A stretch of DNA of 60,622 bases, counting the filler, from Circinaria calcarea (Eukaryota): the NCBI GenBank assembly GCA_051942165.1. It is 3 parts of 3 records of this genome, joined end to end, with 100 filler letters (N's around TTAATTAATTAA, not from the genome) between each part and the next. Parts side by side here need not be neighbours in the genome. Positions count along the whole stretch, not along the records: positions 40,577 to 60,622 come from JAVECS010000185.1; 2 more parts are not named here. The stretch is one strand, 5' to 3'. The translations under genes were made by a program, and so were the position numbers. Position 1 is the first letter of the stretch. The number at the start of each line of letters is the position of its first letter. The notes under the pieces were generated by a model. That model did not search any database. It had not been told where the DNA came from and saw only the letters and a list, made by a program, of their open reading frames with translations. Below, piece after piece: positions 1 to 60,622 of this stretch.

Positions 1-14
1 ATACTCATCTTCAG

Positions 15-7660: not shown

Positions 7661-8260
7661 CCATCAGAAAGGTGAGCTATCTGTGAGTGGCGAGTACCAT
7701 CCTCGCCCGTCAACGCTCTTCGTGGCGGCGATGAGAGAATATGGATACGTTATATCACTAGATGTCACATTGATATAAGGCCTATTTTGTATACTACAGG
7801 AGTAAAGCTCTCAGGTGTGAGTCAAGGTTGCGTGTGCATTATTCTCTCAGCATGATGGAGCTACCATCTTTTCGAATATCTTCAGAATCAGGTAGATGCC
7901 AAAACACGGTAGCCTGATGCCGGTGCTGGTGTACTGTACCACGGTCAAAGCATATACACATAAGTCATCATCGTAAAATCGTCAAGCCGTTCCCCCCAAG
8001 TCGCTCGCTAAGATTAGAACATAAGCGACGTAGAAACATGCCCTATCCATAATCCATAAATCATCGAACCGTCCGTGAAGAGTTATCTCTCCTCCCTTGC
8101 GGGATGCTGTAGCAATTCTGGGAATGTGACGCGGGACCACTCCAGTCGTGAGAAAATGGTCAAACCGCTATACAAGTAGGCTGACATCGTCTCGATCATC
8201 GAAAAGGAAAAAGCTGAACGCATGTTCAGGTCTGTTGTGGTTTTACTGGCGTATCCCCCA

Positions 8261-20218: not shown

Positions 20219-20318
20219 NNNNNNNNNNNNNNNNNNNNNNNNNNNNNNNNNNNNNNNNNNNNTTAATTAATTAANNNNNNNNNNNNNNNNNNNNNNNNNN
20301 NNNNNNNNNNNNNNNNNN
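20219..20318. other. Artificial contig-joining spacer
   Basis: Exactly N44-TTAATTAATTAA-N44 (stops in all six frames); identical to the spacer at 40477-40576. Confidence 0.95.
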
Positions 20319-20412
20319 TAGCTCGACTGACTCTCCACCAGCCCCCAGACTTTTTCAGTTATCGCTGGTTTCATTATTCCTTCAGCCCAGCTCTTTCACC
20401 ATCCAGCCCATC

Positions 20413-38400: not shown

Positions 38401-40476
38401 CAATCACTCCAGGATAACTCACCCAGGAGCATCGAAGGCGGTCTGCGGGGAGTCAAACCAATCTCGCTCTTTGGCGGCCCTCTTGGCGTAAATAGCGACT
38501 TACCGACAAGTGCATCTTCCCCAAGGACTCCGCTAGATTCAGAAGATTCCCGTCGAGGGAAACTAAATACCATTATCGAGTACAGCCCAGAGGAGTCACC
38601 TTTGCATAAGAAGTCTCGGGATATATCAGACGTTGGACTGCGCGACTATGGCCCGAAAGCTGCTCGTCATTCGGCAACGCCGCAAAGTCTTTTGCATCAC
38701 CGAGTTCGTTCGCCGCTGGCCAGCGACGAGAGAGACAAAGGTCCAATCTCGACGGACGATATCTTATCGCGGCTCTCATGGCCAGCTGTTGACGAAGAGA
38801 ACCATTCCGTTGATCTAGACCGGAGTCTAAGCCGCAACGACCACTCGGAACGTCGGACATCGAGTCGACAGAGTAACGTGTCGACTCTAGCGATTGACCC
38901 TCACAAACACCCCGAGCCGGAGAGGCGTTCGTTCAGCGGCGCGAGTATCCGCTCTGGGGAGAGCATCCATGCCATCATCAGAACACCCGACCAACTTCGA
39001 TCGGCGAGTGGTCTGAGTAACCGGTCGTCAGGAACACCACCGTTGCGACGTGTCGACCGCAGCGTCAGTGGAGATTTGAGGGCCGCCAATAAACGGAGTG
39101 AGGCTAAAACAGGCGCTAAGCGAGCCGAGGCCGACAACCTGGGAGCTGAACCTTATGCGGCGATTCCCTCCTCCTCAACTTACGACCCCGTCACCGACAA
39201 AGGCAAGAAAGCCATCAGTGCGATGGCCGATGTCTATGTAAGCCCTTCTCTCCCTGTAGACATGACACGCGACCCAAACTAATCCGATGGAAATGTAGGA
39301 GGGATGGGGTGACGTTCATGGATCCCCGCGATCGCCAACGCGCCCGCCAAGCATGCGACGCCGCCAGAGCATGCAAATCCTGGACCTGGAGACGAGACTC
39401 GACCAGCTCGTATCGGAAAATAGACTGCTGCAAGATGCCAGAGCCAGGGCGGAAAGAAACGTCGATGATGCGGCTCATGATCACAGTCGAGAGAAAAACG
39501 CCCTGACCGAGGCCCTCCAGACACGTGATCTCTACTTGAAGCAAAAGGACTCGGAGCTAAGCGAACTGAGGGACATCTTAGACCGGCTTCATCATGAGGT
39601 GTCGCAACTGACTGAAGTCAACGAGGGATTGACGGGAGCGAGACAGGAGTTTGCTGCCGAACACCAGCAGAGATATGACCAACTTGCAGCCGAGCATACT
39701 GAAACGCATCGACAATTGCAAGACTCCACAAGGGAGTTGGAGGAATTGAAACAGAAACACACGCACCTTTCTACCGGAGTAGAAGGCATCGTTCGCCATG
39801 AAGTCACCGTGGCAATTGAGAGTAAGAACTTAGAGATACGGCAGCTGCGAGACGAGTTGCTCGGCGCAAAAGAACAAGTACGGCTGTTGCAGCAGCAGAT
39901 CCTAGCATCCAAGCCTAGTGATGACCTCCTCACAAGTAGAGACGAGGACTATTTTGACAGTCAATGCCAGCAGCTATGCCAGCATGTGCAACAGTGGGTG
40001 CTGCGCTTCTCCAAGTTCTCGGATATGAGAGCGTGCCGTCGTACCAGCGAAGTTTCTGACGAAAAAGTCATCGATCGCTTTGACAATGCCATTCTCGATG
40101 GATCGGATGTCGACATCTACCTTGCTGACCGAGTCAAAAGGCGTGATGTGTTCATGTCCGTTGTCATGACTATGGTTTGGGAATATGTTTTTACACGATA
40201 CCTCTTTGGCATGGACCGCGAACAACGACAGAAGCTCAAGTCGCTCGAGAAAACCCTGAGCGAAGTCGGTCCAATGAGAGCTGTGAACAAGTGGCGAGCC
40301 ACAACCCTAGTGATGCTATCGAGAAGAGATGCTTTCCGAGCGCAACGAGCGCAAGACACTGAGGCTGTCGTCCAAGAAATCTTTCGCACTCTAGCCGTGC
40401 TCTTACCCCCGCCTTCGCACCTAGTGAATCAGATACAGGAGTCTTTACGCAATGTCATGCGAGCGGCAGTAGACTT
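20413..40476 (+). CDS. lah: Leashin-like Woronin body tether ('involucrin repeat protein'), 3'-partial, >6600 aa
   Basis: 18.8-kb exon 20413-39237, intron 39238-39298 (GTAAGC..CTAAT..TAG), then in-frame EGWGDVHGSPRSPTRPPSMRRRQSMQILDLETRLDQL, a coiled coil, and EDYFDSQCQQLCQHVQQWVLRFSKFSD to the gap. N-terminal blocks GLAAEYYGD and FEEYTEYIGVCKYCF, and an acidic disordered middle with Lys clusters, match the known architecture of Pezizomycotina leashin. Confidence 0.82.
24100..24500 (+). repeat. Coding 24-bp tandem repeat (ERRDQEAR-type charged repeat) in leashin
   Basis: GAACGTAGGGACCAAGAAGCCAGG and variants repeated many times; encodes alternating E/R/D/K, consistent with a single alpha-helix. 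Confidence 0.85.
29883..30140 (+). repeat. Coding 60-bp tandem repeat (PNEVALPDGDDLDLLPTLPAS) x4 in leashin
   Basis: Four consecutive ~20-aa units visible at both DNA and protein level. Confidence 0.85.
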
Positions 40477-40601: not shown

Positions 40602-41205
40602 TTCTCCGCCTTTTTATCTTCCAGCTCGTAGACCTGAGCATGTAGTATTAGTGTAATAGCTTTGCGATAAACTGACGGCCTCCGGTTTCCTGCTACCTCA
40701 AGCGCCACTTCTGATCAGTCGATTTGGTTCAGTATTGATTCTGATGCTCTAGTGAGCTCCGCCGACGAAATATTCAGATATAAAGATTGAGAAGAAGAGG
40801 GCGGACTGTCGCCATAAAGACGTTTAGGAATTGGGCCACAATTATTCTGCTTTGGTAGTGTTATTGCGCGTTTCATCTTTGCTGTCTCGTCTGGGCCGGT
40901 GCTTGCCTCAAGTACATCAAGCGGCCGCTTATTCCCTTTATCAAGTATAGGGTAAGGAGTGAGTGGGAGATCCATTATATAATGATTGTTTCGCTGATAA
41001 ATAAATCGTGGTTGCGGGAGTCGTAATAGAGTATGGTAAGAAACTTTCCTTTTCCATTCAGGGCTGGGCTGCTCCATCTTCACCGTTTATCAGTCTCTGT
41101 CTCTCGTGTAAAATGGATGTGCTTGTTGTTTATGATTACTGTAGACGCGACTGAATAAAACTCATAGTTCTTACTGCATCTCTATGCTCTTGCTACCCGT
41201 CAAAC

Positions 41206-41290
41206 ATGGCTCCCCTTCCTTCCCAAATATGGCTCCCCTTCCTACCCAGATATGGCTCCCCGTTCCATCCAAAAGTGGCCCCCTCTTCCG
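41206..41290. repeat. ~23-bp tandem repeat x4 (ATGGCTCCCCTTCC core)
   Basis: Two near-identical and two degenerate copies in intergenic DNA. Confidence 0.75.
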
Positions 41291-41722: not shown

Positions 41723-44240
41723 CTAAAATATTATACAAGAGTTTGGTGTAATTGTCACCTTTCTCTTAATATCTAAAGCTGCATGCTCGTTACTGACTCT
41801 GATACTGTTATCATACCTTCTGACGCGAAGTATCTCATCATCACTAATTCCCAGACAGTCCTTTGGAATCCAAACGGTAGGCTTTTGAACAGAAAGAGCC
41901 TCATGCTGGTATGTTGGTGAAATGAGTTCGTCAGTCTCGCTCGGTATAGGTTTCTTAATATTGGAGAACAGGGTAGTAAAAGAGCCTTGATCTGCGAAGG
42001 AAACTACTTTCCAGTCATAACATTTTTGCAACAGGGTCCGGAAACATTCATCTGCTTTCGTTACACCGCACTCATGTTTCTTTTCTTGTGCTTTCTTTTC
42101 TGGTTCTGCTATGTCCGCAAACATGGGCACAAATCGAAGTTGCGGTGCAAATGCGTCGTTTAAAAGAAGCTGAAAGCTCACCGTTATAACCATCGCAACA
42201 ATCATAATAACAGCCTGACCAATGCATGTAGCTCTGTTGTGGTCATCACGGACCAAGAAGAATAAGCCCGTCACGCATAGCTCCATAACATAAACCCCAG
42301 TAAAAAGTTGGTTTAGGGCCGTTGGATATAGCATACCACCGCTGTCATGTCCAGAATCTGTAACGTAGAGTATGTTGTAGCGAAATACGATCCAGAATAC
42401 GCCAAATACTATAGAGCTAAAAAGTAGGATCAGTGGAGCTATCACCGAATATATAATACCTGACACAATGTAAGAAGAGGAGATCAACCGGAATAGAGTA
42501 TACAACTTACTAATGCAAGCAAGGTTAGTGTAGATCGGGAATACAGTGCCCCACTGCAGCTGAGGTAGACTTATCTGTCTTTTCCTTTTCTGCCATGGTG
42601 TACGATCCATGAAAGGAGCAAAAACAATTCAGCTAATTAGATCTCTTACTTGGATAAGCGCACCCGCACTTATCGAGAAGCCTTGAAATAGTATGTAAGA
42701 GAAGAAATAGTTGCTTGCTTTTGGTAGACTTCTGGCTAGCACCGCTGGTACTAAATCTAGGCCATGAACGAGCTTCTGAAGAATGGTCGTGGCGCTTGAA
42801 GACAAAGATACTGTAAGGAAAACCTGTACAAATAAAAACGTGAAATAGTAATTTTGTAAAGATTGCTCAATCGCTGTTTTGGTTGGTAGATCTTGACAGT
42901 TTGCAATTATACGAAAGAAAATTGGAAGTAACATAGTGAGTGCAGTAAGAATCACCTGCGGTAAAACATCTTGAATACAACCAAGTAGCCAACCCGGAAG
43001 CTGGTTGATCCAGCCTAGCCATGGCAGTAACCCTGTAAGGTAGGAGATTTGTGATAGTAGTCCGGAAAATGCAACTGGGAGAGCTCATGCAATAATAAGT
43101 AACGCAACAGCGACAGTGGCTAGTATAGTTCGAGCGTAGCGATCCCACCAGACAATTGATAGACTCTCCCACCTTACGTTTTTTGGGGGGGCTCCAACGT
43201 ATTGAGCTCTTAAGCGTAAAGGTGCATGATGGACAACAGATTGACAGGCCATATGGGCAGCCGCTTGAGTGTTGAACTGTACGGAGGCTGGGTTTTTAAA
43301 GGGGTATACCTTAGATTCATGCGGGTCTTGATCGGCGTTATCGTTCAACCGTGCTAACTCTTGCTGGTCCTGATCAATCTCGTTATTCAGTCGTACCATC
43401 TCTTGCCAACAATGATCGATGGTGTCAACTCTTCCCAAAAAGGGAACAGAAGACATCCAGGTTGGGCCCAAGATTGGGAGACGCATATAGTCACGATTCT
43501 TGTCACCCAAAAAAAGTCTCCAGAGAGGTGATGTAAGCCCTGTATTTGTGTCACACGACGTATTCTCCTTGACTCTCTTGAACTTATGATTGCTTTGGTT
43601 GTGAAAAGAATTGATTGCCATAATCATAAGCTTTGTCTCTGCTGCCTCCAAGATAGAAACCACTCGCCTCCGCTGTTGAATCTTTTTTGATAGATTAGTA
43701 ACGTCTCGGTTGATCCATATGGTACGTATTCCGCCAGGGAAAGTGTTGTAAAGACTGGTAAGAACGACAGTGGATAGGAGTCCCTGAGGTATATCCGTTA
43801 TAAGGATGGTGTTTGCAGAGACTTGAAGACGATGCTGAGACGACGTAAAGTACGCTTGCCGCACCCGGGTATACTCAAGTAGCTCCGCGTAGATAGTACG
43901 GCATATAAATACCACCACGCTCATGGCCATCACCAGGTGAGCCCAGTAGAACTTGGTGTGTGTCAGCCCCACGTTTGCCCAGCTTAGTCGATCGAGACCT
44001 TGAATTCCGCCCGCAGGGTTCTTCCCATCCATAAGATTCAAAGGAACTAGAATAGGAATTAGGATCAAACTTGAAGAAACAAATATCTTTAGAAGGGTGC
44101 GAAGATATCGAAGAAAGAAATAAGCGTCAAGATCAGAATTCCGAATGGTGACCGAATCCGATGTTTGAATCACCAGCGGGATCCAAGAGATTACCCCCAA
44201 AGGAAGTATTTTAGCGCGTTGTCCCTCAGGTACAATTTAC
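41723..44240 (-). pseudogene. CSC1/OSCA/TMEM63 (DUF221) channel pseudogene
   Basis: Motifs LDAYFFLRYLRTLLKIF, FYWAHLVMA, YFTFLFVQVFL, LPKASNYFFSY and GGMLYPTALNQLFTGVY. In-frame TGA at 43085-43087 and 42629-42631; no intact N-terminal TM exon recognisable; one intron near 42460-42510. Confidence 0.8.
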
Positions 44241-44632
44241 GGCGGATGTATATGCCATTGGTGACATGATATCTAATAGCGTTAACATACTGAGTTAATG
44301 GTAGGCTGTACCGTATATATAGGTGGGAGGAACATTTACTGACTACAACCTTAATATGCCGATCGATTTTGGCAGTCCCAACCTCCAAACCCGGCTCCTG
44401 TGGCGTGGTAGATGGCCGCTCACATGGACGCGCCATAAAGATGCATTGGGAGACGATGGAGGGTGCACAAAAAAGATAAATCTTGTAGGATAGCAGAGAC
44501 TGAGACGGATAAGAGCCTGTAACCTAGTTATTGTCGGGCGCTCTATGAAAGCCAAAGGGCATGCATTGGGCCGATATCATCATGGAGGCCGTGCCAGAAG
44601 AACACCCACCGGCTTCGGCTGGGCCGACAAAC

Positions 44633-44669
44633 TTAGTCAGCAAGAGCACGCCGTGTTCTTGCTGACTAA
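44633..44669. repeat. 37-bp near-perfect palindrome
   Basis: TTAGTCAGCAAGAGCACG-C-CGTGTTCTTGCTGACTAA: 18-nt arms with one mismatch. Confidence 0.85.
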
Positions 44670-45208
44670 TTGTTGATAATTATTTTTAAATCAGAGCGGT
44701 GTCTTTAGGCTAGGGTCCTAACGCTAAGCATGATGTCTCTGTTTTCCCAGAGATTGAAACGGTACCCGTGGACAATAATAGAGATGTAAACCCAGCATTA
44801 CTTGCTATCACTATTTCTTCTTTCCGTGAGCACTCAGGTCTTTCAACTGCCTAGACGGCTATTGCTGTAGATACTTGTTCACGTGAAGCAACCACACGCA
44901 CCCCGATTTGATCATGCCCGAGAACCAGCGACGACTGAATTATTGGTGGAAAGAGGTTCAGTTCATGTCCTCGATATCTGACACATCCTCGTTAAATTCG
45001 ACGTCTCCTTCTTATTGAACCATTTGCCCTCGCAACCTATTATTTGGACTTACCAAGGTTGGGATGAGGGTGTTTTGGAGATGAGTGCGGGTGAAAGGAG
45101 TATTTTGTCACATTTCATTCGTTGTATTTAAGTAGAATAAAACTACCTGCAGCAGAAGTAATGACGCAAGCTGAAATGAGCAAGCAGCGTGTCACAAAGC
45201 CATAAAGA

Positions 45209-47358
45209 CTAGGTGATTCTTTGCTTCAGCATGCTCATGAGTTTCTTATTTTGCCGTATGAGTTGATCTATCCTAGCATTCGACGAGGCGGCTTGCTTCT
45301 TCATTTCCTGCTTCTGCCTCTCAATCTCCTGCTGCTGCCCATCGTGTTCTCTTTGAAGCTCTGATTCGGTTGCGCTGGCATTCGAGGGGGTTTGCTGTTT
45401 CAGCAAATGCATGAACTGCTCGTCTCGTTGAGCCATCTGTTCTCTCAGCCGATCTATTTCCTGCTGCAGCATGGATTCGTTTCCAGAGCTGGCATTTAAT
45501 GGAGTTAGTTGTTTCAGCGATTCCATGAGTTGCTGATCTCGTTGAGCGAGTTGCTGATCTCGTTGGGCGAGCTGTTCCCTTAACATGGCAGTCGCTGTGA
45601 GTCTCGGTTTCTTCATGCGTTCCGTGTCCTGAGATGCAGGAGCGCTTGTCGCCATTTCCTGTGAATCAGGTAGCTCTGATTCGTTTTCGGCGCTGGCAAC
45701 TGATGTGAACGAATCGCCAAGTGAGACCCCAAAATCTAGATCTGGCGGTATATCGTCGATAGCCGAGCAGATTCTTTTGAGGTGAGTTGGCATCCATACA
45801 TCGTAGACGTTTTTAGTGAATTTATACGCTGTCCATTTCTCTTTCCCTTCTAAGGCGGTAAAATAAAATTCATGGATGGGATGACGATAGTAGGTGGTCT
45901 TATCTCCATCAATCACAGGGTAATGACCATAGATTCTTACAGCTTGATCGTCGTGCGAGATCGAGAAAGCGAGGATTTCTAGGTGGATTTCTTTCTCGCG
46001 TTTCACATGCCTGTAGAGTTGGACGACAGCTCTTACAGCAATAGTCATACTATGAGCATTCTGTCGATCTGCGACATCAAGTGCTGCAGCACCACACTTC
46101 ACCTCGCATGTCAGGAACGGAAAGTACATCCGCCACGTGCCCATGAAGTAGGAAGTATGAAGATCTTCGATCTCTCCAACCAAAGGCTTCAACTTTTCGA
46201 GTTGTTCATCCGTGAATGCAGATCGCGCGAATCCCACAGAATGGTCGGGCTGTGGACGGCTATAAACGACGGGTATAGCGCTGTTCCAGCCTTCATTAAC
46301 ACTCTCGGTCAAACAATCGAGACCTTTGGCACCATAGATTTGTAGGACCAGCGGAGACGGACATATCAAGGGAGAAATGTGCCGTACAACTATAGCCTCA
46401 TTTCTACTCCGTACACTGTCGCAAGTCTCATCAAACAAATCATCGCGAAATAATGTTTCTTGAGGAACTGTTTGTTCCGTAATAAGTAAGGATCGACAAA
46501 GAGTCTTGCTTATATCAGTGATTTTTAAAGGGGTTCGGCCCATATAGCTGCCTTTGGTCGCAAGTACAGTCTCATAGGCTGCAGTCATATATTTAGAACT
46601 TTTGGCTTCCCGCGGCTGTTGATCGCTAGGTGTTGCAAGGCTAGATTCCGAGTCTTTACGCCGAAGAGAAGATGACGACTTCTTTCTCGCAAGTATGTCG
46701 GCCATATTGATCTCTTGTTTGATAAGAAAGTCCTTGAGACAATTGTATCGCTCCAAATCTTCCCTGGTCTGGCTGTCTTGTTCAGAGTATTCCTTGGGCC
46801 AGCTCCCTTCTCGAATCCAATGTTTGATTGGTTGAGTCTTTTTGTTGATATCACCTTTCGCTTCCTGTTTTGATGTATCCTCGACAGCAGGATTTGCAAG
46901 TAAGGTTCGTGGTCGTTTTTGACAAGGTCCGTTTCCAGTTCGAGGGAGCGGATCTTCAGCTTCCTGAGATCTCTTTCGCTTTCGATCAGAGTTTGGAGGG
47001 TTCTCTAAAGCTGAAGGATCTTGCAAGATCTTTGATTCGAGTCAGCCTTCGCAACACAGTATAGTGGATGACCGCTAGGACATACTTCTTCACCGAAGGA
47101 GTTGGTCGTTGAAGGAGAGGGAAATAGAGGCTTTCGCTCCGGAGTCTTGCGCTGTATTTCTTGTAAACGTGTGCTCTTGCGAACAGGCTTGAGTAACTGT
47201 TTGCGCTGAATACCACGAGGCTGCTTCCCTATAGATGGTCAGCAAAAGGTAGGGTGGGCGTTTAACGTGAATGTGTTACCTTTATTGGCAAGTGATTTCA
47301 GCACCGAAGATTGCCGCCCATTTCTTTGGGCGTTTGACTTGGTCTGATCTCGAGGCAT
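45209..47358 (-). CDS. PD-(D/E)xK nuclease-like protein (DUF7924-type) with C-terminal coiled-coil repeats, 3 exons
   Basis: Spliced start MPRDQTKSNAQRNG..KQPRGIQ..PVRKSTRLQ joins ORF 45209-47026 in frame. Core motifs NEGWNS, RPQPDHSVGF, FPFLTCEVKCG, ADRQNAHS and FSISHD..VRIYGHY. Confidence 0.75.
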
Positions 47359-47600
47359 GTCGATTGGAAAGAGGGGAAAGAAGATGCTTCTATATTGTTA
47401 GAATGAGATGGGGGTGCTTGCAGGAGGAGCGGTAAAGTCGATCACTAGCATGGAAGGTATGACTCATGAAGAACAAAGGTGAGGAAGCCTTGCCTCAGCG
47501 CCACCTCCGCAAGCTCCGGAGGCTTCAGACTTCATATTAGCTCCGCAAACCCCTTTTTTCCGATCCGATATTATGTCAGCTTTTTTTATATGAAGTCTGA

Positions 47601-49163
47601 GTACTCCGTAGCCTCAGAATTCTCAGACTGTTTTTGCTTCGCTGTCGCGTATTTTTGAATTACTTGCATGCTGCATTGGAGAAATTCTGGTGTGTTGTTG
47701 CTCCTAAGGATCAAGAAAAATACGAAAATCTTATTCGTGTTCTCTGCGATAAGAACGAGGAAGGCTGCAGCCAATTCGTTCGTCATGAGTCAATCTTTAT
47801 ATACACTAATTTATTGGAAAAGCATCAGATCAGCTTTACACTCGGTCGGCAAATACCCTATGAGCTAATGTTCATTTTCGAGGGGCGTACCATCAAGGCT
47901 ATAATAACGGACCAAATCTTACTGAAGCAGTCAATTATTTAACCGGGCCACTGGAGATGGTCATAATTACGAGTTTTGTCTACCCATACCTCTTGAGGGT
48001 CTACGCCCTGCTTTAAGCCCTTCATCTGCTTCAAACATGCCATCTCGCAAGCGTCCGCGCAGGTTGACTTGCGACAGCGCTATATCAAAGAGAACAAGAT
48101 TCAGCTTGCATAATCCCAAACCTCCAACACTCACAAATACTAGTCAGTCAGCGAAACCTTCTGTACCGCCAAACCGTCGGGAAAACGGCCATTGTACAGG
48201 TAGACATTAAGAATTCTGGAATTCAGGTCACATTATGAGGAAATTACAATGGAGAGTAGCACCTCGGGCGTGGATTTTGGGAGAATCATTTGGAACAGAA
48301 TTTATGTTGTTGATTCTGTGGCAATACATTCGCGCCTACGAGACAACGGCTACTGGGCCCAAACCATTGACCAGCCGCACGTTGTCCCACGACCTTGCTT
48401 CTTTATGGAGGTCCGCCAACGTCGAAAAGCAATATCTGAGTTCTTTAGAGAATCGTCTACAGCGAGAAAAGTACTCGAGGCGATCCTTCAAGGAGCTTGA
48501 GGACATAGGGAAACAGGATATTCGATGTAATATAACCAGAGTTTCGCTAGCAGCATTGAAAATGGTGAAGGAAAAACCAGGAATACGTGGCAAGCTTGGA
48601 GACCCGACTAGAAAATATGAGTTGGGTGCCGTTCAGGTAGCTGCACGCACCGCCAAAATTTGGACAGAAGTTATCACTATCTTCAAGCCAGACCTGGGAG
48701 ATCATGCCATTGTCGCTATTCATGGGACGTAAGAGCCGACCAGTCGGTACGTACCAAGGCCTGTTGTTAAAGTAAGTGCGTTACTTTCGTTACTAAGAAT
48801 TCTTTCTTCAGAATTGAAAGGTTGTCGCAGCATGACCGCAAGGCCTTTCTTGATACCATAAGAATACGCAAGGTCAAATTATTGAAGTACTTGCAGCCCA
48901 CGACTGATCTATTCTCCGCTCTAGTTCACGGTGAATTGTCAAGGAAATCTACTCTATTAGGATCATACAACTTCCTCGACGCCATTATTCTTCGCAGAAT
49001 CCGTGAGCGGTACACGATTCAGGAGTTAGTCTGCCTTAAAATAGAGAGCTCGACCCATATAAATTTTGAGAAAACGCTTTCCTCAGGGATGATAGGATCA
49101 GACTACCCTATATTTTCTCAGATCAACACTCCCCCAGAAACGCCCATAACCGCCATGGATTAG
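47601..49163 (+). other. Possible multi-exon or decayed hypothetical gene
   Basis: Three protein-like ORF pieces (47634-47942, 48235-48732, 48822-49163) with some splice-like boundaries; no recognisable domain and no clear start codon. Confidence 0.35.
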
Positions 49164-49266
49164 GAAGCATTAATAGTATGCTAAAGCACTGGTTGACATT
49201 AAAAGCATCCATCCAAGATCTCTTTGCGCCAGTACAGCCGCCGGACCGCCTCAACGGCTTTTGATT

Positions 49267-50130
49267 TTAAGGTTGCTTGGGTAGTTGCCGCGACGGTGCT
49301 TCGCACGACGTGCCGATACAACAAGAAACCAAGTTGCTTCCGAGGTTGCTCACATTCGCGCCGTCGTCCTTGGGATAGGTATAGGCAGCCCCCGCACAAG
49401 CTGCAAAGAAAGGTGGAGCGGGCCCCTCGGGGAGATTCTGAGCGGAATTTAGGCAGACCGGGCCGTCAACTTGGGTAGTGCATATGATGCCTTGTTGCAT
49501 GAAAAGATCAATGTTGCAACCGGAGACTGCTGTTCCCCCTGAAGAACAAGTTATAGGCACAGAATAACCATCGACATAACTAACATCGATATCGGGCGGA
49601 CCTGTATAGCTACCCTCAATCTTACTGCCGTTAGGATTGAGGTTAGGACCAACGTTTATTCTTCCTGCCCATCCAGTTGGAAAGTTATACTGAGTAGATG
49701 CGGCGTTGGTCAGTGCAGTGGGTTCTGGGTTGCCTACTGCAGACGGCCCACCAGCGTTTGCACCAAAGAAAAGAGATAGTTGGGTTCCGTACACATTAGT
49801 GATTGCCATTGTCATGTCGCTGCCCGAGCTATTGACTGTAGTTGTAGTAATAATTCCCGTGCCATTAGTGCTTGCGATTGTCATATTGCTACCAGAGCTA
49901 CTGGTTGCTATAGTTTTAGTAATGGTTCTTATGGCTGTGGTTATGGTAATAGTTCTTGTGGCGGTTATGGCTGGGATGGTACTTGAGAATGGGATGGATA
50001 TGGTGGATGGGGCAACTGGTTCCCCAGATAATGTATAATCTTTATACTCCCAAAACTCAAAATGCCACATGGCAATTATTGGAGCCACCAGGGCGAGGAG
50101 TGAAAGATTAGTCTGATAAAAAGTTCTCAT
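49267..50130 (-). CDS. Secreted thaumatin-like protein with Thr/Ser-rich linker
   Basis: ATG 50130 gives a signal-peptide-like MRTFYQTNLSLLALVAPIIA. Thr-rich linker, then GWAGRI, DVSYVDGYSVPITC, CAGAAYTYPKDD and a Cys-rich end. Confidence 0.8.
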   Translation of the reverse strand: MRTFYQTNLSLLALVAPIIAMWHFEFWEYKDYTLSGEPVAPSTISIPFSSTIPAITATRTITITTAIRTITKTIATSSSGSNMTIASTNGTGIITTTTVNSSGSDMTMAITNVYGTQLSLFFGANAGGPSAVGNPEPTALTNAASTQYNFPTGWAGRINVGPNLNPNGSKIEGSYTGPPDIDVSYVDGYSVPITCSSGGTAVSGCNIDLFMQQGIICTTQVDGPVCLNSAQNLPEGPAPPFFAACAGAAYTYPKDDGANVSNLGSNLVSCCIGTSCEAPSRQLPKQP

Positions 50131-51015
50131 TTTGACGGCAAGGTGTCCAAAGTAAATAGAATTTGCAAAAGAGTCAACCCCTTGAAGATAAATTAATGAC
50201 TTAAGGTAACGACACAACAGTATAGAAACTGAAAGTTTTTGCTCCAGAGAAATTTGAACGGGTCCTGCAATCTCTTTTGTACGCAATTCTGGTACGCTAC
50301 CGTCGATTGTGGAGGCCAGAAATAATAATTTTGGATGCTTCTTAAGACATCCATTAATAAGGCCCCTGATGCCACCTTTCTGCTTCTTTATTTTCTGCTT
50401 CACCTCACCCAATGTCTTGCCCCCCAGTCAACCGTACCAATCGATAGAGAATCGGGGGTATGGGCAAACGTGACATAAAACGTTTGATATAGATGTAATC
50501 CACACATACACTGAAGACTTAACAGCCCGGCTTAAGAATAACTAGGCAAATACAGATCTTGACGCTATAGAAGTTGGTAAACTTCGGTTGCATATGGACG
50601 CTTCCTATAAATAGGAAAGTAACTTATGAATGCAAAATTGTAATATTGTCACGAAATGGACTGGTCAATTATAATGTGTGTAAAGCTTGTTGTTTTTCTA
50701 TGTATGCAATGCGCTAAGCATATTGTCAAACCCCTTGAGGTTTGGTGTTGCAGGTGTTGCAGCTCGGCTGCATGTTACGCCGCTCCGCGCGCACATTCCC
50801 ATAGATAGATTCTTCCTGATGTGCTACACACAGCAGACACACACACATAGTTGCTCAGTAGTAGAAGACCTACTCCCAGCCATTCTACATGCACTCATAG
50901 TGATACAGTAGCTTGATACATATGCAAAGCCGCGTCGCGCGGCTTTGGCAATAGGCGCGAATAGAGCCAAGCCACGGATATACCGTGACAAATATTCTAA
51001 GCTATGACACTTCAT

Positions 51016-51692
51016 CTAGTCAAACAATTCTCTATCCCTGCTATCTGCTTGATAGCCGTTCATCCACCCATTACCATAATTCTTCCATTCTGGCGCGGTC
51101 ATGCTTTTGTCCCCAAGCTTCGCACCACTTGAAGAGGGAGGCGTTTTCACCTCCCACGGCCGGTTTGTTTGTGCCATGAGTGCTTTCAATGTCGTCCTTA
51201 TTCCTTTGAAATATGGATGCAAGTCGGCGAGATGTTGGTTCAGTCGGTTCATACCCTGATTCAACTGATCGATTTGTCTTTTTCCTTATTAGTATTTATC
51301 TACTACGCTGTCTTTACATGGTGTACCTTGAATTGACTTCCAACCTATGGTCATGTTAACTGCAATATCTCAAAGAGAATGCGTTGCACGTACAATGCTT
51401 TTAGTTCCTTATACGCTGACGGATTCCAGTTGAAATTGATATCTGGTATATTGTCTGTCAGCGTTTCTGATGAGTGATGAGTTGTATCCTGATAGGCCCA
51501 GCCTAATCCTGGATTCGAATTGCTCTGTTCGCTGTAGAAATTGGGTATAATGGGGTAATCTATATTTGTGAACGAGTTTACGGATGTGTTGATTTCTTCC
51601 GGTGTGAAGATATTTTGCGGTTCTTTTTCATATTCGTTGATGAACTGATCCCATTGATCCTCGGAAAAAGGCTTTTCTTGGATGGAATTCAT
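51016..51692 (-). CDS. Small hypothetical protein with short coiled coil, 3 exons
   Basis: MNSIQEKPFSEDQWDQFINEYE..ELKAL, an 18-nt micro-exon (LEVNSR), then QIDQLNQGMNRLNQHLADL..; both GT..AG introns keep the frame. Confidence 0.55.
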
Positions 51693-51946
51693 TTTAAGAA
51701 GCAGGTAAAATGGTGATGAAATGACTTCCAAGAACTTGATGCTCTTTAATATCTTTTCCTACACATCCACTTTTGATGGACGTGGCTATCTAAAATAGAC
51801 GTTGCTATCCAAAAAGGCTCTCATTGGCTGTAAAGTTTCCAGCCGCGCGGCCCTTCGATCTGCGCCTCGCATCCCTTAGAATCCCACTGTTGGTCCGGTC
51901 CCCTATTTTCCCGTGCTTACTTCGCTTTGACCCCCAAATCCATTGA

Positions 51947-52175
51947 TCCTACGCGGCATGGATGCTTACGCACCGCAGCTCCCTACGCATATTGCTTCCC
52001 CACGCACCATCAATCCCTACGCAGGAGCCGATCCCTACGTATTTACCAACCCTACGCACCATTAATTCCTACGTAGGAGCCGATCCCTACGCATTTACCA
52101 ACCCTACGCACCATTAATCCCTACGTACCATCAATCCCTACGCGTTTACCAACCCTACGCGCTATCAACCCTACT
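51947..52175. repeat. Array of 14 CCCTACG(C/T)-core repeats, ~17-bp period
   Basis: Cores at ~51947, 51964, 51981, 51998, 52015, 52033, 52050, 52067, 52085, 52102, 52119, 52136, 52153 and 52169; includes a 52-bp higher-order duplication. Confidence 0.92.
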
Positions 52176-52341
52176 AATCATGTCGCACGACTTTGAAGAT
52201 AGAAACCAAGCTCTATAAATGCAACGTCTGTTTGAACATTGCATGTCCATCAACCACATACTTCAGTCGGTATCTACAGATTGCTCTTCAAATTTCTCGC
52301 AATTACTGGCTGTCTCGTCCTCTAACTACGTTATAGCAATC

Positions 52342-53158
52342 ATGGCATCCTCGCGAGGCGAGGCAGTGAACTTAGCGCATCAGATACCCAGGACGCTGCA
52401 GGCACCCATAGTGGTACAGATAGGAGTATAGAAACCCCTATATCAATTACGATGGTTGAATTTAACGGTACCAGGATAGTGGATCTATCTGCAAATTATG
52501 CGGCATCGAGTGGTTTTCAGAACAAAAGCTTCAAAGGCAGACCGGCATCTTTCAAACTCAAAATGCTATTCTAAACGACAGTCTGTACCGCGCCGGCCAT
52601 GCGAACCAGCTACAGGAAATCCGCCTCAGAGACTGCGACCGTCATATTCAAGAACTTTCCCAGGCCAAAAATGTATCAGATCAGGCAATCTTAAGTCTCC
52701 AGGAAGAATTGCAAACTCAACAGATAAAGATTGAGTCTGAAACGAGGGAACACGTTCTCGCCGCTCAAGCACTGAACCATGAATTCAAGTGTCATGCAAA
52801 GACAGAGAATGACCGGGACCATGAACGTGCTATGGCCTGGAAGATGGCCGAGATCCTGAACACTCTTTCTTCAAATAATGGGAACTTGAGCGCTGCTTTG
52901 CCAAATGAAGTGGGCCTTGGTACCATGCTCCATGAATGGGAGAACATGAAACACGAACGAACAAATATCCTAGAACAATTGCAGCACCAAATCAAAAAGC
53001 TGCAGCACAACCAGCAGATCCATGAACATTTATCGGAGGATTCTGAGGGCAAGTCTGAGAGCACATGCTCTTATAGTGGCGAGGATGTCGAGATCATATC
53101 AGCTGTGATACTGCCACCGGTGGGGGAAAGGCAAGGGAAGAGAAGAAGGAATCAATAG
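52342..53158 (+). CDS. Hypothetical coiled-coil protein, 2 exons
   Basis: MASSRGEAVNLAHQIPRTLQAPIV, intron, then DSGSICKLCGIEWF (CxxC) and heptad-rich helices continuing into ORF 52709-53158; ends in a basic NLS-like KRRRNQ. Confidence 0.6.
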
Positions 53159-53257
53159 ATAGGGCTGGAGGTATCTTTTGAATCACTAGTTTAAAGCTCA
53201 TTGAAGGGCCCATTTCAGTTAGAAAGGTGTTATTGCGTGTAAAATTCAATATAGTCA

Positions 53258-55827
53258 TTATAATTCTTCACTTTCTTCCCTTTCTTCTCTTAGCCGTCCA
53301 GTTTCAAATCGCTCAATAAGACTTTGCACTTTTGCTGCCGGCGGAACCTTGAGTACGGCTTTGAGACGTTTTGTCTTAGCGTCTTCGATAATTGAAGCGA
53401 GAGGAGTTAACTTGAGTCTTTTTCCAGGACCTTGAGCTAAGTATCGTGACTGATATACTTCAGGTTGTGACTCTTGTGATTTACGTGAGCGCTTTAACGC
53501 AATGAGCATAGAGGATGCGTTCCGTGAATCAGCGTGTCGCACATGAAAAGCGCCGTTTATAAATGGTGACAATACTGTAAAAGTAAATTTCTGCCGATTT
53601 CCACCTCGGAGTACCCGCGAAGCTTCTGCAAGGGACACAACTTGATCTTGAGATGGCGTTTGACCGAGGTCTGGTGCTTCGACATCGTCAGGTGCGTCTT
53701 CGTGTGCCATGCGCTTCTGGAGAGGCAATACTGGAGAGTCGGGCAGTGGTGGAAACGTTTGACTGAAGTCTGAAAGTCCAATATGGTCGTGGACATCTTC
53801 ATATATCGTAACGTCCTGAGGAGGCGATGTTGGGGGGTCTGGTATTTCAACATCATTAGGAGCGTCTTCGCGTGTCGTATTTTCTTGAGGCGATTTTGGG
53901 GAGTCCGGTAATGGCGGCAACTGTGGTGATATTGAAGTGAAGTCTGGCGATTCAACATTATCGGGAACGTCTTCGTCCATAAGATCGGACCCAGGATTGG
54001 AACTCGGCCCTTCTTCCATCGTGCCGAAGAAGCTATAAAAGAAATCTCGCTTCACATTGAACGAGGTCAGGTAACGTTTTGGAGTAATGCTGGATGAATT
54101 TGGATATATGTGATTGAGGAAAAGATACTGCCGATCAGCCAGGAAAGATTTCTCGAACGGAATGCCACATCGACTAGAGATATCCGACCCGCAATCATCG
54201 TGATCAGAGGTTAATTCCGGGAACTTCATGGCTGATGTATTTTGTCTAATGCCTTGAAGAACCGCACAAATGGCCTGAACCTTATGATGCAGGTCTACAG
54301 GTTCAATCCGATAAAAATCCGGAGGCCGAGCCTCGCGCAGAAAATCCTCGGCCATTTCGGCATCAACATTCTGGAGATTTGGATAAGGTTGACATATTCG
54401 CTGGAAGCCGGTCTCGGACGCAAGAGAAGCGAGTTCATACCACCATCGTGGTTGTATTTTTGGGCGTTTAGGCATTGGCTTACGAGCATCCTTTCGAGGG
54501 GCCTGGCCGATCATCCAAGGAAATTGACGAAGAGCCAGGCACCAGAGCTGACGATATGCCTTCCACTGAGCCAGAGACCCAGATGATTGGATACTATTTT
54601 CAAATGAAAATTCCTGTTGTTGCAACTTCAGTCCAGGTTGCCCATTATGGAGAGATTCGAAGGCTTGAGCGATAGAATATTTACAGTTGAAGGGTAGTAT
54701 CACCTTCAAGATTCTGGCACCTACTTCGAGAACCTTTGAGCCTTCCAGGAAGGTGTGAATGGAGGGAATAATGTATTCGACCGAACATACACGCTCGAGG
54801 ATGGCTGAACGCTGTTCCCAAGATTTAATCGCAGGTAGGATGTCGCCCTTAAGCATTTGTGTCTCAACATATGTGCGATCTTCCAGAGACTTGCTTGGGC
54901 AGCGGCCTTGTAACAGATGAACAGTATAGGCGTCTGTTTGAAGATGGCAACCTTCGTTCCCTCCAATTATATAACTCCACGTTTGCTTGACTCGACGTAG
55001 GTATCGCGTCATTTCCTAATACAATTGTTAAAACAGAAGAAATATTATGCAAAGAGATAATATCCACCTCGGGGCAATGTATAGTAAGGAGCCGATGGAA
55101 CGTGCCGAGCTGCATCGCCGGCCAAAGCCCTGTGAACGGAATCAAGGCATCTAAACTATCTCTGAACTCGCGCATACTAGAGTCCTCCTCTGCCCTCTTC
55201 TCCAACCGTATAAGGTCGTCCCTCTTGCTTTTAGAAAGCCGTGCAAGCCATTTCCGTCTTCGAGGTTTGTTGCCTTGTAAGGTTGCAATGCGCATATGGC
55301 GAAAGATATCTCCGTCGTAAAATCTCTGCGAGTTCGAGCATTCCTCGCGAAATGAAGTTCTTCCTTGAAGATTGAGATCTAAGGCAGGTCAGGGACGGGT
55401 AAGAAGTTATTCAAGATGGGTTCTTACCATCAGCGTATAGATTAACAACCCACCACTTATCATTCGCAGCCAGGTATTTTTTCGCTGCTTCCAGTCGGTG
55501 TCTGCCATGCAGGTAGGTTAAAGGATGTTCTGGTGTAAAGAATTGAGGCTCCTGAAGAATAACGTCACTGATATTGCCGGCTCGAAAACCTTGCGGAAGA
55601 GCATTTCGAGAGATCAAAACAGGTACATAATGCTCCGGCTCCAACCGCACACAACCCTCCTCTTCAAAGACTTTTAATAACCTCGCGACGTTCTTGTCGT
55701 CGAACTGGCGTGGATTTTTGGGGATTGTCTCGTATTGCAATTTGTTAATAGGGACTTTAACTGATCCACAAAACGTTCGGCTTTTCTCTCGAAATACCTG
55801 TAAATCATCAGTTGATAGAGTCTCCAT
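53258..55827 (-). CDS. DUF3723 protein (Starship-associated), 3 exons
   Basis: Exons ~55827-55428, 55378-55068 and 55015-53258. Motifs NVARLLKVFEEEGCVRLEPEHYVPVLIS, LHGRHRLEAA, WWVVNLY, FYDGDIFRHMR, GLWPAMQLGTFHR, IIPSIHTFLE and YRQLWCLALRQFP are characteristic of fungal DUF3723 genes. Confidence 0.82.
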
Positions 55828-56014
55828 CTGTGATGTCAACAGCAACCGTACTGCTTTGAACGGGGCATCCACTTTAATACATGGGAAACCACCAAATCAG
55901 ACTCCCTGTCCCCAAACGCCAAAAATGGTTCGCAAAGGAACATCGTCTTTTGGATGAATTTCGCCGCGTACAAAACCAACGACGGTATCATTTTGACTTG
56001 AACATACATTAGCT

Positions 56015-58635
56015 ATGGCTTCTTGCCGACATCTCGCATGGTTACATGTGACGAGCACGAACCATGGAAAGGAAGTTATACTTTTCAACCCAGGCCGCAT
56101 GACACAAGTTGTGGGAGAGCTGACTAATTCAGAGACTCAACAACCATCTGTCCTCCTATTTATTGGTCGAAAAGCCAAGAAGATAGCGCTAGGAAAGCTT
56201 TTCCTGGAAAACAACATCCCGAAAGGTCACCATGATGGCTTTGCTACTTTACGAGTTGATAGCGCAAGTCTGTATTCCGGCTGTCCTGTTTTGTTTGCCG
56301 AAAGTGACCCGTTTACTGCAATACCATCTACGGCGAACACATTCTCCTGCCACGAAACCGAGCCATTTCGTCTCAAGTGGGCTAAAGCTATACCGGTGGA
56401 TGAACTCTACAATACTGTACATGCTCGGCTTCTCATTCCATTCGCTGACGTGCTGTGCATTTTTGCTGATGATTTTGTTGACTTTGAGAGTGTCCTGGAT
56501 CGTTTGGAGAGTTGGGCGGCTGCTGGCAGCGCCTCAAATCTGTCCGAGCATATGCGGCCAAGAGTTGTCATCGTCAAACGCGGCGAGGAAGCCAGTCCGA
56601 GTCCCACATATGATTTTCTCGAGATGCAGGATCTTCGATTCAGCCTAAATCGAAAAGTCTTAAAGAAATTTTACTCTTCCATTACTGTGTTGCATCTCGC
56701 AGACGAGCAGATATCCCCGCTGGCACGTTTTCGGCGGCTGAAAGAGTTACTCTGGAGGAACATGGATGAAATGCGACAAGTTCGGCAGAGAAATAGATGC
56801 CTCTATTCTGCCGTGCACCTTGCTGAATTCTTCCGTATGGCCGTAATGCATACGGCGACCTCTCTCCTTCGCCCTTTCAACTTCATTCTTGCAAGCCGAC
56901 AGAACAACGAAGTCCGCTCCGATCATACAGACCATTTGACTACATTCCTACGACTCGGGACCGAGTTCGGATTATCTTGGGATGCCATGACAGGCTTTAT
57001 TGCTTCCAGTATTTTGCTGGATGCGTACCCTCCAAGGATGCATAGTAAGACCTCTTGATTCGCATTCGATAGATCATAAGCTAATCGAATGACTAGGGTT
57101 CAACCCGAAGACTGTATATGAAACCATTTATTATCGCTCCTGCCTCAAGTCACTCGTCGACTTACACAAAGATCGATCCACTACCGATGAGCGGGCCGAG
57201 GAGCGGGCTAAGGAACAGGAAAAATGTGTAAAGAAGCACCTGATCAACACTTTCTTGGATATGATTCGGTTGGGCAAGACCGCCGCACAGCTGCATCGGG
57301 AGAAGGCGGGCAACCTTAACATACTGTGGCCGCAACTTAAAAGCAACAATACTTGCCTTTGGTGTTTACGGCGAAAGCCAGAAAATACGCTTTCCTGCGG
57401 ACACGCCATCTGTGATGTTTGCGTCCGCATTTACGGAGAGGAGATGCCTATCACAGAATCTCAATATCATATTGGCACTTGTCTTTTATGTCACTCTGGG
57501 AGCTGCACCGTTAGACTCAAACCGTTTTCTGCCGGTGAACGGATTCTCAGTATTGATGGTGGAGGTCCGCGTGGTGTTATACCGTTGGAAATTCTGAATA
57601 TTATCCAGGGCATCATGGGACCGGATGTTCGACTTCAAGACATGTTTGATGTTGCATTCGGCACCAGTGTTGGTAAATTTTGCCTCTAGTTCTTAAGAGG
57701 TGTCAAACTAATCATATGGTAGGAGGCCTTATTGTTTGCATGCTGTTCTTACGCGATGTGCCAGTCGCTCAATGTACTCGACTTTTTGATACGCTGGCCC
57801 GAAAACTCTTTCAACGACCCCAAGAGTCAAGAAACATCTTCAAACGTCTTCGCCTTTTCTTTAAAGGTTGGTATTTGGATGGTCATTATGATATAAGTGC
57901 CCTCGAAGATTATCTGAAGGAAAACTTGGGAAGTAGCGATCGAATGTTTGGTTATCAACAGGGTATTCTTGCTACCAAGGTGGAGTGGTCGCCGCTACAA
58001 TTGGCAAGGCCGATCCGATTATTTTCACCAACTACAATGGATCGGGTACAAGAAATGAAGATTGCGGTAAGTGCATACGCTATATATTTGGATGCAAGTA
58101 ACTGAAGGGTAAATTAGGGTATATGCATATTCGCCCGAAGAACATCGAAAATGAGCCATGTTTATGGGAAGCGTAAGTTCTTTATTTTCAGAGGAATATG
58201 TATAACTGACTGTATAGGGGTCGAGGTACTTCAGCTGCGCCTATGTGAGTGTAAGCCGGTAAATGTGCGGCTTGCCATAACTGACTCGAGATAGGTTATA
58301 CCAATCAACACTGATCAAGGCCTCTGGACCGGTTCAAGATGGTGGAATGAGCGGGCACAACAATCCCGTTAACATTGCATTGTGGGAAAGTCAACAGATC
58401 GATCCATCTGTACCCAAACCTGACATTATTGTATCTCTCGGCACAGGCACCGAAAGAATATCGGCATCCTCCAAAACCACTGAGTTTCGCCATGTGGTTC
58501 TTGACGGATATGTTCCTCGACTCTGGCGATCTTATATGTCTTCTTTTGACGGCCAAAAAATCTGGGACGAACTCATGAACCATGTGGATAAGAAAAATCA
58601 AGAAGACTATATACGATTAAATGTCTTCCTGCTTA
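56015..58635 (+). pseudogene. Patatin-like phospholipase (Starship PLP type) with RING-like Zn motif; frameshifted and 3'-truncated
   Basis: CLWC..SCGHAICDVC..CLLC, ILSIDGGGPRG, FGTSVG (GxSxG), TSAAP and QDGG..NNP. A 1-nt deletion near 57980 shifts TKV|GVVAATI..FTNYNG out of frame; family-like sequence stops after YIRLNVFL at ~58633. Confidence 0.78.
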
Positions 58636-58797
58636 AGAACCGAATCACATGTTTACGTGAGTGTTGCGGTCAATGCTCAACACCTCTCCCACTATATAAA
58701 AGCTTTTTCCATAGCGTAGCGTAGTTAGTGATCTACACCACACATAATAGCAATACATGCATACCACGAGATATGCTGCTTAACAACTTCGGCCTAT

Positions 58798-59886
58798 CGG
58801 GACGCGAAGAACTCCATCATCATTACATGGCAAATATCGTTCGATTATATCTATAAGATCAGACCGTCAGCTGCTGATTTGCTGTCGCTCATGAGCTTTT
58901 TCGATCGTCAAGGGATTCCAGAGGCTTTACTTCGAGATCGAGCCGAGCAGGGAAATAGCGAGCAAAATCAGGAAGAACACGATGGCGATGATGAACAGGA
59001 TCACGATAAGGATGATATATCAGAATGTAGCGATGAGTTTGAAGACGATATAGTGGCACTACGAAACTTCTCGTTCATCTCTATCAATGCAGATGGGAGC
59101 ACCTTTGAAATGCACAGCCTAGTGCAGCTAGCCACTCGAAAGTGGCTTGAGGTACATAGCCAGCTAGAACATTGGAAGCAGCAGTTTATTAGAAATCTTT
59201 GTGCAGAGTTTCCAACCGGGGAGTATGAAAATTGGATAAGATGTCAAGCACTGTTTCCACACGCAAAATCAGCAGCAGCGCAGCGGCCGGAAACACAAGA
59301 CTCATTACGAGACTGGGCTTCAATACTATACAAGGCAGCATGGTACGCGTGGAAGGTAGGGAATGCAGTAGAGGCGGAGAAGATGTCGATTCAGGCGATG
59401 AAAGTGAGAAAGAGGATCCTCGGTCGAGAGCATGAAGATACGCTGGATAGTATGGCAATGGTAGGTCTGGCGTATAAGCTAAAAGCCTTATGGGGAGCAG
59501 CTAAAGAGCTGGAGGTGCAAGTGATGGAGACTCGCAAGAACAAACTCGGAGCGGACCATCCTTCCACGCTGACCAGCATGGCCAACCTGGCGTCGACGCT
59601 TTGGAATCAAGGCCGATGGGATGCAGCTGAAGAGCTGGGCGTGCAAGTGATGGAGACGAGCAAGAACAAACTCGGAGCGGACCATCCAGACACGCTGACC
59701 AGCATAAACAATCTTGCATTTATGTGGAAGGCCGCTGGCAAAGGAACTGAATCTATAAAACTTATGGAGGAATGTGTACAATTACGGAAACGCGTCTTAG
59801 GAGTCAATCATCCATATACTTTATTATCCTGCACCACTTTAGCGAATTGGAAAGCCGAGCAAGAGGACGTTGGACTATCGGTTTAA
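58798..59886 (+). pseudogene. 5'-truncated NB-ARC-TPR (fungal NLR) fragment
   Basis: RDAKNSIIITWQISFDYI..AADLLSLMSFFDRQGIP, FEMHSLVQLATRKWL, then TPRs (LGADHPSTLTSMANLASTL). Two 126-bp near-identical repeats start at ~59497 and ~59623. No P-loop or start codon upstream. Confidence 0.8.
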
Positions 59887-60622
59887 AGGGCCGTGTGGCT
59901 GAGATGGATCGCTTAGTCAAATGTGCTGAATATAGTTGTAATTGAATATATTTGCCAAGCCTATAGCAAGTATAGGCTTGCAGAGCTCAAGAGAGGCTAC
60001 TCTGATGTACGAGGCACGATGACTCAGCAACAGGCACGTAACCTCGATCAACTACGATTTTGAACAAAACGATCATAACGTCCCTCCACACGTGCCGGAA
60101 AACCCGCCGTGCCGGAAAATCCGGCCGATGAAGAGGCTCGTTAAATTAAGCTATATGCTATGTAATATGGCTATTTCGGCATGCTTAGAGATACGTTTAC
60201 ATTGTCTTGTTTTTGCCCAGTTTGCTTCAGCTTTTTATTTTTTATAACATATGTCCTTGGCCTTGATTCCCCTATTATAAAATTGTCGGAGCTCATAACA
60301 CATGGCCAGAGGTCTTTCTAAATGTTAAGATTTAATCACGACAACAGGAAGCTTTCACCAACGGTATGCTTGCTATTGCATCCAAATTTATATCAAAATT
60401 ATTATATCGATCGGTACTTCTAGACCAAAGCTATTACCAATCTGGCTAGTGCAGAAACGCTCTACAAAGCCTCCCAAAATAACGGCTTCCATTACATGTA
60501 CACCCCTTTAACCTACACGTACACCCCAAAAATCATAGTTGTACACCCCCCGGATTAGGTAATAATCGTCGTCATGTTATATAGTGGCGCGTAGTATTAT
60601 TATAGATATTTGCAATGTAATA

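Follow-up and report, generated by a model that had tools for sequence, protein, structure and literature searches.

The window, by which we mean the whole 60,622-nt stretch of Circinaria calcarea DNA analysed here (assembly GCA_051942165.1; all coordinates count along it), consists of three joined record parts, with positions 40,577-60,622 coming from JAVECS010000185.1. Genes for ATP synthase B, CBF/Mak21, a CCCH zinc-finger protein and PSMD12 lie at 0-20 kb and the gene for an RSN1/PHM7 channel at 41.7-44.2 kb. The latter is followed by a DUF7924 gene, orphan ORFs, the tandem array considered here, a DUF3723 gene and then, at 56-60 kb on the plus strand, a gene with weak patatin matches and TPR_10 repeats (the patatin/TPR gene). 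The window is a segment of a fungal chromosome, and the array is chromosomal and integrated; the DUF3723 gene belongs to its neighbourhood, not to the array itself. The sole syntenic relative compared, a distant one called L001, is a 16.7-kb sequence obtained by a metagenome scan with the protein encoded to the right of the array. The features around the array are as follows.

51390 to 51692, minus strand: exon 1 of the left orphan gene, about 101 codons, ending ...YKELKALY, from homologue agreement
51823 to 51832, minus strand: ATTGGCTGTA block with a CCAAT box on the minus strand, 131 bp from the left ATG both here and in L001, where the block is identical (7426-7435)
51938 to 51970, plus strand: left edge of the array, with the degenerate units 1 and 2, aligning with L001 7476-7508, including CATGGATG
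51945 to 52183, plus strand: tandem array of 14 head-to-tail units, 16-18 bp apart, all in one orientation, from Tandem Repeats Finder and core anchoring
51980 to 52174, plus strand: 52-bp higher-order unit of three motifs (types C, A and B), 3.8 copies with 84% matches, from Tandem Repeats Finder
52067 to 52078, no strand: sole perfect palindrome of the array, 12 bp, TCCTACGTAGGA, in unit 8, by direct reading
52214 to 52219, plus strand: TATAAA box, 39 bp past the last unit, with the right ATG 128 bp farther on, by direct reading
52325 to 52332, plus strand: ACTACGTT, an extra CTACG-type motif just upstream of the right ATG; the identical 8-mer stands in the L001 promoter at 7803-7810
52342 to 53158, plus strand: right orphan gene, 255 aa, with exon 1 at 52342-52425, an intron of 49 bp at 52426-52474 and exon 2 at 52475-53158
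53258 to 55827, minus strand: DUF3723 gene, made up of three ORF pieces that Pfam matches over profile positions 1-82, 116-199 and 181-508

Two divergent start codons, at 51692 on the minus strand and 52342 on the plus strand, are separated by 650 bp, and the array occupies the middle of this gap, starting about 115 bp from the CCAAT block. The right protein matches, at 100% identity, the public 255-aa sequence P0001, which its source names as hypothetical and assigns to a metagenome-assembled genome of Circinaria calcarea; this identity fixes the ATG at 52342 and the intron behind the first exon. For the left gene, whose relatives are 60-90% identical, the end of exon 1 was taken from the point where the homologues cease to agree, and a second exon probably lies within 51016-51285. 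Neither flanking orphan gene has a Pfam match at E<=5, and a profile built on the right protein collects 42 representative clusters at E<=0.001, 19 of them at <=1e-10, among 1.84 billion; there are no relatives in the prokaryote and viral collections, and the protein atlas returns only unnamed clusters, with scores of at most 0.92. By these searches the right protein represents a small uncharacterised family. Its AlphaFold (AF2) model, with a mean pLDDT of 66.8, contains a helix of about 100 residues (35-135) and some shorter helices, and the protein is predicted to be a long coiled-coil helix without a recognisable DNA-binding fold. The frame changes between the three pieces of the DUF3723 gene appear to fit introns.

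The repeated nature of the array is evident from several directions. The exact heptamer CCCTACG occurs 17 times in the whole window, counting both strands, compared with a mean of 3.47 in 100 dinucleotide-preserving shuffles, none of which reaches 17; nine of the 17 fall within 51981-52159 on the plus strand. Tandem Repeats Finder reports 51980-52174 with a period of 52 and a score of 250, together with weaker rows of period 17, and anchoring on C[CT][TC]AC[GT] resolves 14 units with starts from 51948 to 52170 and successive spacings of 17, 17, 17, 17, 18, 17, 17, 18, 17, 17, 17, 17 and 16 bp. Conservation extends over some 11 nt, the motif A-W-CCCTACG-Y-R, behind which comes a spacer of 6-7 nt that belongs to one of three types: A (CCATYA), B (GGAGCCG) or C (TTTACC). 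Along the array these follow one another as C A B / C A B / C A / A C A. An earlier note on this DNA had described 14 repeats at 51947-52175, and that array is borne out, at 51945-52183 and far beyond chance. Its conserved core with 16-18 bp spacing likewise stands, but the motif is longer than the 7-8 nt given there and is exactly CCCTACG in only nine of the 14 units, with units 1, 2, 4, 8 and 14 off by one or two bases. The three recurring types of linker described there are real, with a variable part that is shorter than supposed, and the 52-bp unit is recovered but imperfectly kept. The same note correctly placed the array between divergent genes, in non-coding DNA and about 1.1 kb from the DUF3723 stop (53258, that is 1083 bp from 52175).

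The repeats are direct throughout, and 13 of the 14 units are non-palindromic. The exception, unit 8, has TACGTA at its centre, and unit 5 is the same palindrome (TCCTACGTAGGA) with one mismatch. The GC content around the array is 0.43-0.46, with no AT-rich block there. A weight matrix built from the array finds no match of 10 bits or more elsewhere in 45-60.6 kb. A scan for a three-core pattern returned at least 117 stretches in prokaryote genomes and 30 in viral contigs, mostly with 18-bp spacing, all of these being raw pattern matches. A perfect copy of the commonest 11-mer of the array lies at 4471-4481 on the minus strand, within the coding ORF of CBF/Mak21, and is probably due to chance, about 0.03 copies being expected in the window for any one 11-mer.

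Comparison of motif and spacer, over units 3-13, separates two layers in the history of the array. Between units of different spacer type the 11-nt motif agrees at 346 of 418 positions (83%) and the spacer at 47 of 222 (21%, the random level), while within a spacer type motif and spacer are alike (82% and 81% identity). Departures from the consensus of the unit's own type number 11 of 121 positions in the motif and 6 of 63 in the spacer (Fisher p = 1.0); in the 7-nt core 2 of 77 positions are off consensus within types, a partly circular test. The even divergence of motif and spacer within types marks the recent copies, those of the 52-bp triplet, as having accumulated changes without extra constraint on the motif. 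Three sites that share a motif and a phase and have spacers at chance level are, on the other hand, hard to obtain without selection on the motif, and in this older layer, the three-site triplet, the motif does show extra constraint. The contrast of 83% and 21% at a fixed phase of 16-18 bp is also a pattern that plain recent slippage of one 17-bp unit does not produce.

The relative L001 is syntenic over its positions 1-12400 with 41.7-60 kb of the window. The divergent left and right genes are present in both, the right-gene homologue being 41% identical, and in L001 the patatin/TPR homologue directly follows the right gene, with no DUF3723 gene in its 16.7 kb. Since L001 keeps the pair without DUF3723, the pair is independent of that gene. 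The RSN1 channel gene is 57% identical between the two and the N-terminal part of the patatin/TPR gene 66%, so that the accessory-type gene is the better conserved; as DUF3723 is found in the window only, so an ORF resembling Ulp1 protease is found in L001 only. There is no tandem array in L001, and the best score of the array matrix in its orthologous promoter is 7.6 bits, ranking 16 among 38 matches of 6 bits or more; the 14-site form is thus lineage-specific and not required by the gene pair. Besides the CCAAT block, the two promoters have in common the 8-9-mers CATGGATG, CCTACGCG(C), CCGATCCC and ACTACGTT. At the spot orthologous to the array, and in the same orientation, L001 carries the densest cluster of CTAC motifs in its 16.7 kb: four per 70-bp window are found only at starts 7496-7511 on the plus strand (4 of 6642 windows, both strands), and three C[CT]TAC motifs per 70-bp window only at 7496-7516 (5 of 6642 windows), both patterns having been picked after seeing the sequence and applied to one relative. 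This cluster would fit an old group of CTACG-type sites in the promoter that was amplified in the lineage of the window, a match that is suggestive, not strong.

The wider neighbourhood has the look of an accessory region. When metagenome contigs from four runs were aligned to 44000-60622, those of X2 differed from the window by 930 C>T and 1024 G>A changes compared with 169 T>C and 166 A>G, and those of X1 by 248 C>T and 262 G>A compared with 94 T>C and 71 A>G. Such an excess of C>T and G>A would be the pattern expected of RIP-mutated paralogous copies, and the RIP-like asymmetry suggests diverged paralogous copies of the accessory region in related fungi. The summed contig depth over the bin that holds the array (6.6 in X1, 24 in X2) is like that of neighbouring bins, contig depth being a quantity that cannot rank parts, and this likeness is not taken to speak against dispersal of the array. 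A repeat boundary near 45.1 kb was considered and dropped: bins 44000-45109 are nearly without contig cover and later ones are covered, and missing cover proves nothing. Taking the RIP-like asymmetry together with the DUF3723 and patatin/TPR genes, the region resembles a Starship or a degraded one, as such elements are described in the available text of PMC9156397. Starship elements have been reported in lichen fungi, according to the accessible part of PMC13486527. The ORFs scanned, up to the window end at 60622, include no match to a DUF3435 captain, which could lie beyond that end.

The explanation that we tentatively prefer, as the likeliest of those considered, is that the array is a promoter minisatellite derived from an amplified ancestral cis-regulatory motif, and that it is predicted to serve the gene pair as a homotypic cluster of transcription-factor sites. 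It would have started from a motif of the shared promoter with the core CTACG, here in the form A-W-CCCTACG-Y-R. This motif would at one time have stood as three sites, 17-18 bp apart and with unrelated spacers between them, and the 52-bp triplet would subsequently have been amplified head to tail to give 14 sites. A single sequence-specific factor, encoded by the host or by the element, may recognise all 14 as a homotypic cluster, which would then be a shared upstream activating or repressing sequence for both divergent orphan genes, with gain and loss of units tuning the strength of the cluster. We infer, in other words, that a protein binds the array, that transcription responds and that a particular factor is involved. 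This reading is favoured by the position of the array between the CCAAT block and the TATAAA box, by the kept motif with its random spacers at a fixed phase and by the cluster in L001. Against it count the equal divergence of motif and spacer within types (11/121 and 6/63), the absence of the array from L001, where the best promoter score is 7.6 bits, and the post hoc nature of the CTAC-density test, with its one relative. It counts against it, too, that no known factor was matched, the likenesses to known binding sites reaching no more than seven of eight positions. The sequence ATCCCTAC, present in five units, agrees at 7 of 8 positions with the reverse of the yeast PDS element, given as T(A/T)AGGGAT in the available text of PMC3283669, and AACCCTAC, present in four, agrees at 7 of 8 positions with the telomere-type TTAGGG repeat that constitutes Tbf1 sites in the accessible part of PMC2834713. 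The PDS likeness, the Tbf1-site likeness and the TACGTA centre of unit 8 may serve as leads only. A literature search for CCCTACG or CGTAGGG as whole words gave nothing related, the match being an unrelated one in Pseudomonas.

The main rival, and a serious one even if we consider it rather unlikely, is that slippage or unequal exchange multiplied a segment of the promoter into a functionless minisatellite, whose copies bind nothing specific and leave expression unchanged. In its favour are the equal divergence of motif and spacer within types and the lack of an array in the syntenic L001, by which the 14-site form is lineage-specific. In one metagenome contig 52109 is joined directly to 52212, with the 102 bases between them missing, in an alignment whose shorter side is 28 letters with the likeness set at 80; this joint points weakly to a copy that may lack the last four units. 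Mere amplification does not, however, account for spacer types that are unrelated while the motif is kept and the phase fixed, a combination that calls for selection acting on the motif or else for an unexplained bias in mutation, nor for the CTAC-motif cluster at the same promoter spot in L001. Another reading, that the array is transcribed or translated, as a repeat-peptide exon, an upstream ORF region or a small RNA, is hardly credible. Open stretches of 39-80 aa do run across the array in all three plus frames, the longest being 80 aa from stop to stop, but the 52-bp period is not a multiple of three and shifts the frame by one at each repeat, stops occur in every plus frame, the public model of the right gene begins at 52342 and the TATAAA box is downstream of the array. 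Rfam gives no match at E<=1 over 50100-53300, there is no tRNA at the array, and its single-strand fold is no better than that of shuffled sequences (z = -1.63).

The earlier note had named the array an iteron- or parS-like site next to the DUF3723 module, a cis-acting element for replication, partition or regulation. More broadly, the array might be a cis-acting site of a giant mobile element, iteron-like, centromere-like for partition, or a recombinase docking site, bound by DUF3723 or another protein of the element; we regard this as very unlikely. It has in its favour the neighbours, DUF3723 and the patatin/TPR gene being Starship auxiliary families, with the DUF7924 gene in addition, and the RIP-like excess of C>T and G>A in the X2 and X1 contigs. 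It also draws on the N-terminal part of DUF3723 (window 55411-55827, minus strand), where G..R.EAA is invariant across nine homologues, two of which come, by their source names, from the lichen fungi Lepraria finkii and Psora testacea; the surrounding consensus reads HGRHRLEAA, with WW after it. This block presumably resembles the arginine box of ParB/Srx. Yet Pfam yields DUF3723 alone for this part at E<=1-5, a profile of the nine homologues has 0 matches to PDB sequences at E<=10, and its AF2 model, at a pLDDT of 43, is too poor for a fold search. The array does share with iterons its tandem direct repeats of conserved sequence, 14 units at 16-18 bp. It stands on a chromosome among housekeeping genes and in DNA of GC 0.43-0.46, with neither an autonomous replicon nor an AT-rich unwinding region; no adjacent replication-initiator gene was found, nor any Rep-type match in the ORFs scanned. 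The palindromic sites of about 16 bp that make up parS have their only counterpart in the single 12-bp palindrome among 14 units, and the window ORFs scanned contain no ParA-type ATPase and no ParB-type Pfam match. Neither does the array recur, at 10 bits or more, in the rest of 45-60.6 kb. Because no replication or partition partner was found in the ORFs scanned, the repeats are direct, the site is a chromosomal promoter and the pair is conserved without DUF3723 in L001, a function as iteron or parS is disfavoured and has, in our estimate, very little likelihood. Of what the earlier note proposed, the iteron/parS label is not supported, the array lying in the shared CCAAT-TATAAA promoter of a pair kept in L001 without DUF3723, and nothing found speaks for replication or partition; regulation is plausible from the promoter position, and the repeat anatomy, with its well-kept motif, random spacers and fixed spacing, would fit the protein-binding platform suggested there. 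The most ambitious form of the mobile-element idea, a docking platform on which DUF3723 or the coiled-coil pair coats the 14 phased sites, we likewise think very improbable; if true, the coating protein would regulate the genes of the element itself or else the pairing, silencing or maintenance of the element, and the array would be a eukaryotic counterpart of the promoter-embedded centromere-like repeats of plasmids. In the available main text of the Starship papers PMC13486527, PMC9156397 and PMC11162782 the term 'tandem repeat' is absent, and 'iteron', 'ParB' and 'myb'/'DNA-binding' are each absent from the accessible text of one of the three. Slimmer still is the chance that the array is the remnant of a smaller transposon, its units being subterminal transposase-binding repeats. 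The subterminal regions of CACTA, hAT and Mutator elements contain many direct copies of a short motif, and many such copies in about 230 bp do look like this. There is, against this, no terminal inverted repeat or inverted partner array in 44000-60622 and no transposase match nearby, and the blocks shared with L001 are colinear around the array, with the CCAAT block and CATGGATG on the left side and ACTACGTT on the right, so that nothing looks inserted.

The preferred reading, a promoter minisatellite that acts as a cluster of sites, has parallels in known systems. Tandem repeats in eukaryotic promoters include variable mini- and microsatellites that tune expression, as described in the available text of PMC3566118 and PMC4857002. 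The array resembles them in being non-coding, running head to tail and lying next to core promoter elements, just upstream of the core promoter; by analogy, its unit number would be changeable and graded tuning of the neighbouring genes would be expected. A yeast study on 'transcriptional evolvability' reportedly belongs to the same field. Unlike simple-sequence promoter repeats, the array has a unit of 17 bp, a super-unit of 52 bp, a sharp 11-nt motif and three unrelated spacers, and by this comparison it appears to be more like reiterated binding sites. The yeast GAL1-GAL10 pair has a multi-site upstream activating sequence in its shared divergent promoter, and the array is similar in consisting of one motif in several copies between divergent genes, upstream of both core promoters; it differs in having 14 sites in a strict 17-bp phase and a single orientation that stem from recent tandem duplication. 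In bacterial partition systems direct repeats around the promoter of the par operon are bound by a small adaptor protein, and some partition-type repeats sit in the promoter and double as autoregulatory operator. The array shares direct repeats at fixed phase with plasmid iterons and partition repeats (about 11-22 bp), but is located on a eukaryotic chromosome with no initiator, ParA- or ParB-type partner or AT-rich unwinding region found, and its flanking pair is conserved in L001 without array or DUF3723. It is plausibly, then, a promoter tandem repeat or homotypic site cluster, a protein-binding platform with a regulatory role, the motif being kept better than the spacers and a similar cluster standing in L001, the latter from one relative and a post hoc count.

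Should the preferred reading be true, the locus would offer a clean natural case in which tandem duplication raised the number of sites in a promoter from a few to 14, within a part of a lichen-type fungal genome that is accessory and affected by repeats, and might be usable as a tunable bidirectional promoter. The result also cautions against taking every periodic array near DUF3723 for a partition site.

Other repeats occur in the window. Four copies of CGTAGGG on the minus strand at 24247-24436 were set aside as unrelated to the array, since they belong to a coding 24-bp repeat in which CGT-AGG-GAT encodes Arg-Arg-Asp. The ORF in question runs uninterrupted for 6335 codons (20275-39282, plus strand), has no Pfam match at E<=0.001 and shows a strongly positive AT skew throughout; its coding tandem repeats are of 24 bp (24089-24490, RDRE-type) and 63/126 bp (29880-30137). 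A 23-bp tandem repeat of 3.8 copies with 80% matches (41201-41289) lies just before the 3' end region of the RSN1 channel gene, and upstream of the same gene there is a near-perfect 37-bp palindrome (44633-44669), with 18-nt arms that are 94% complementary and 1 nt between them. The DUF7924 gene, at 45374-45568, contains 60-nt direct repeats 114 bp apart as well as a 21-bp tandem repeat of 2.1 copies.
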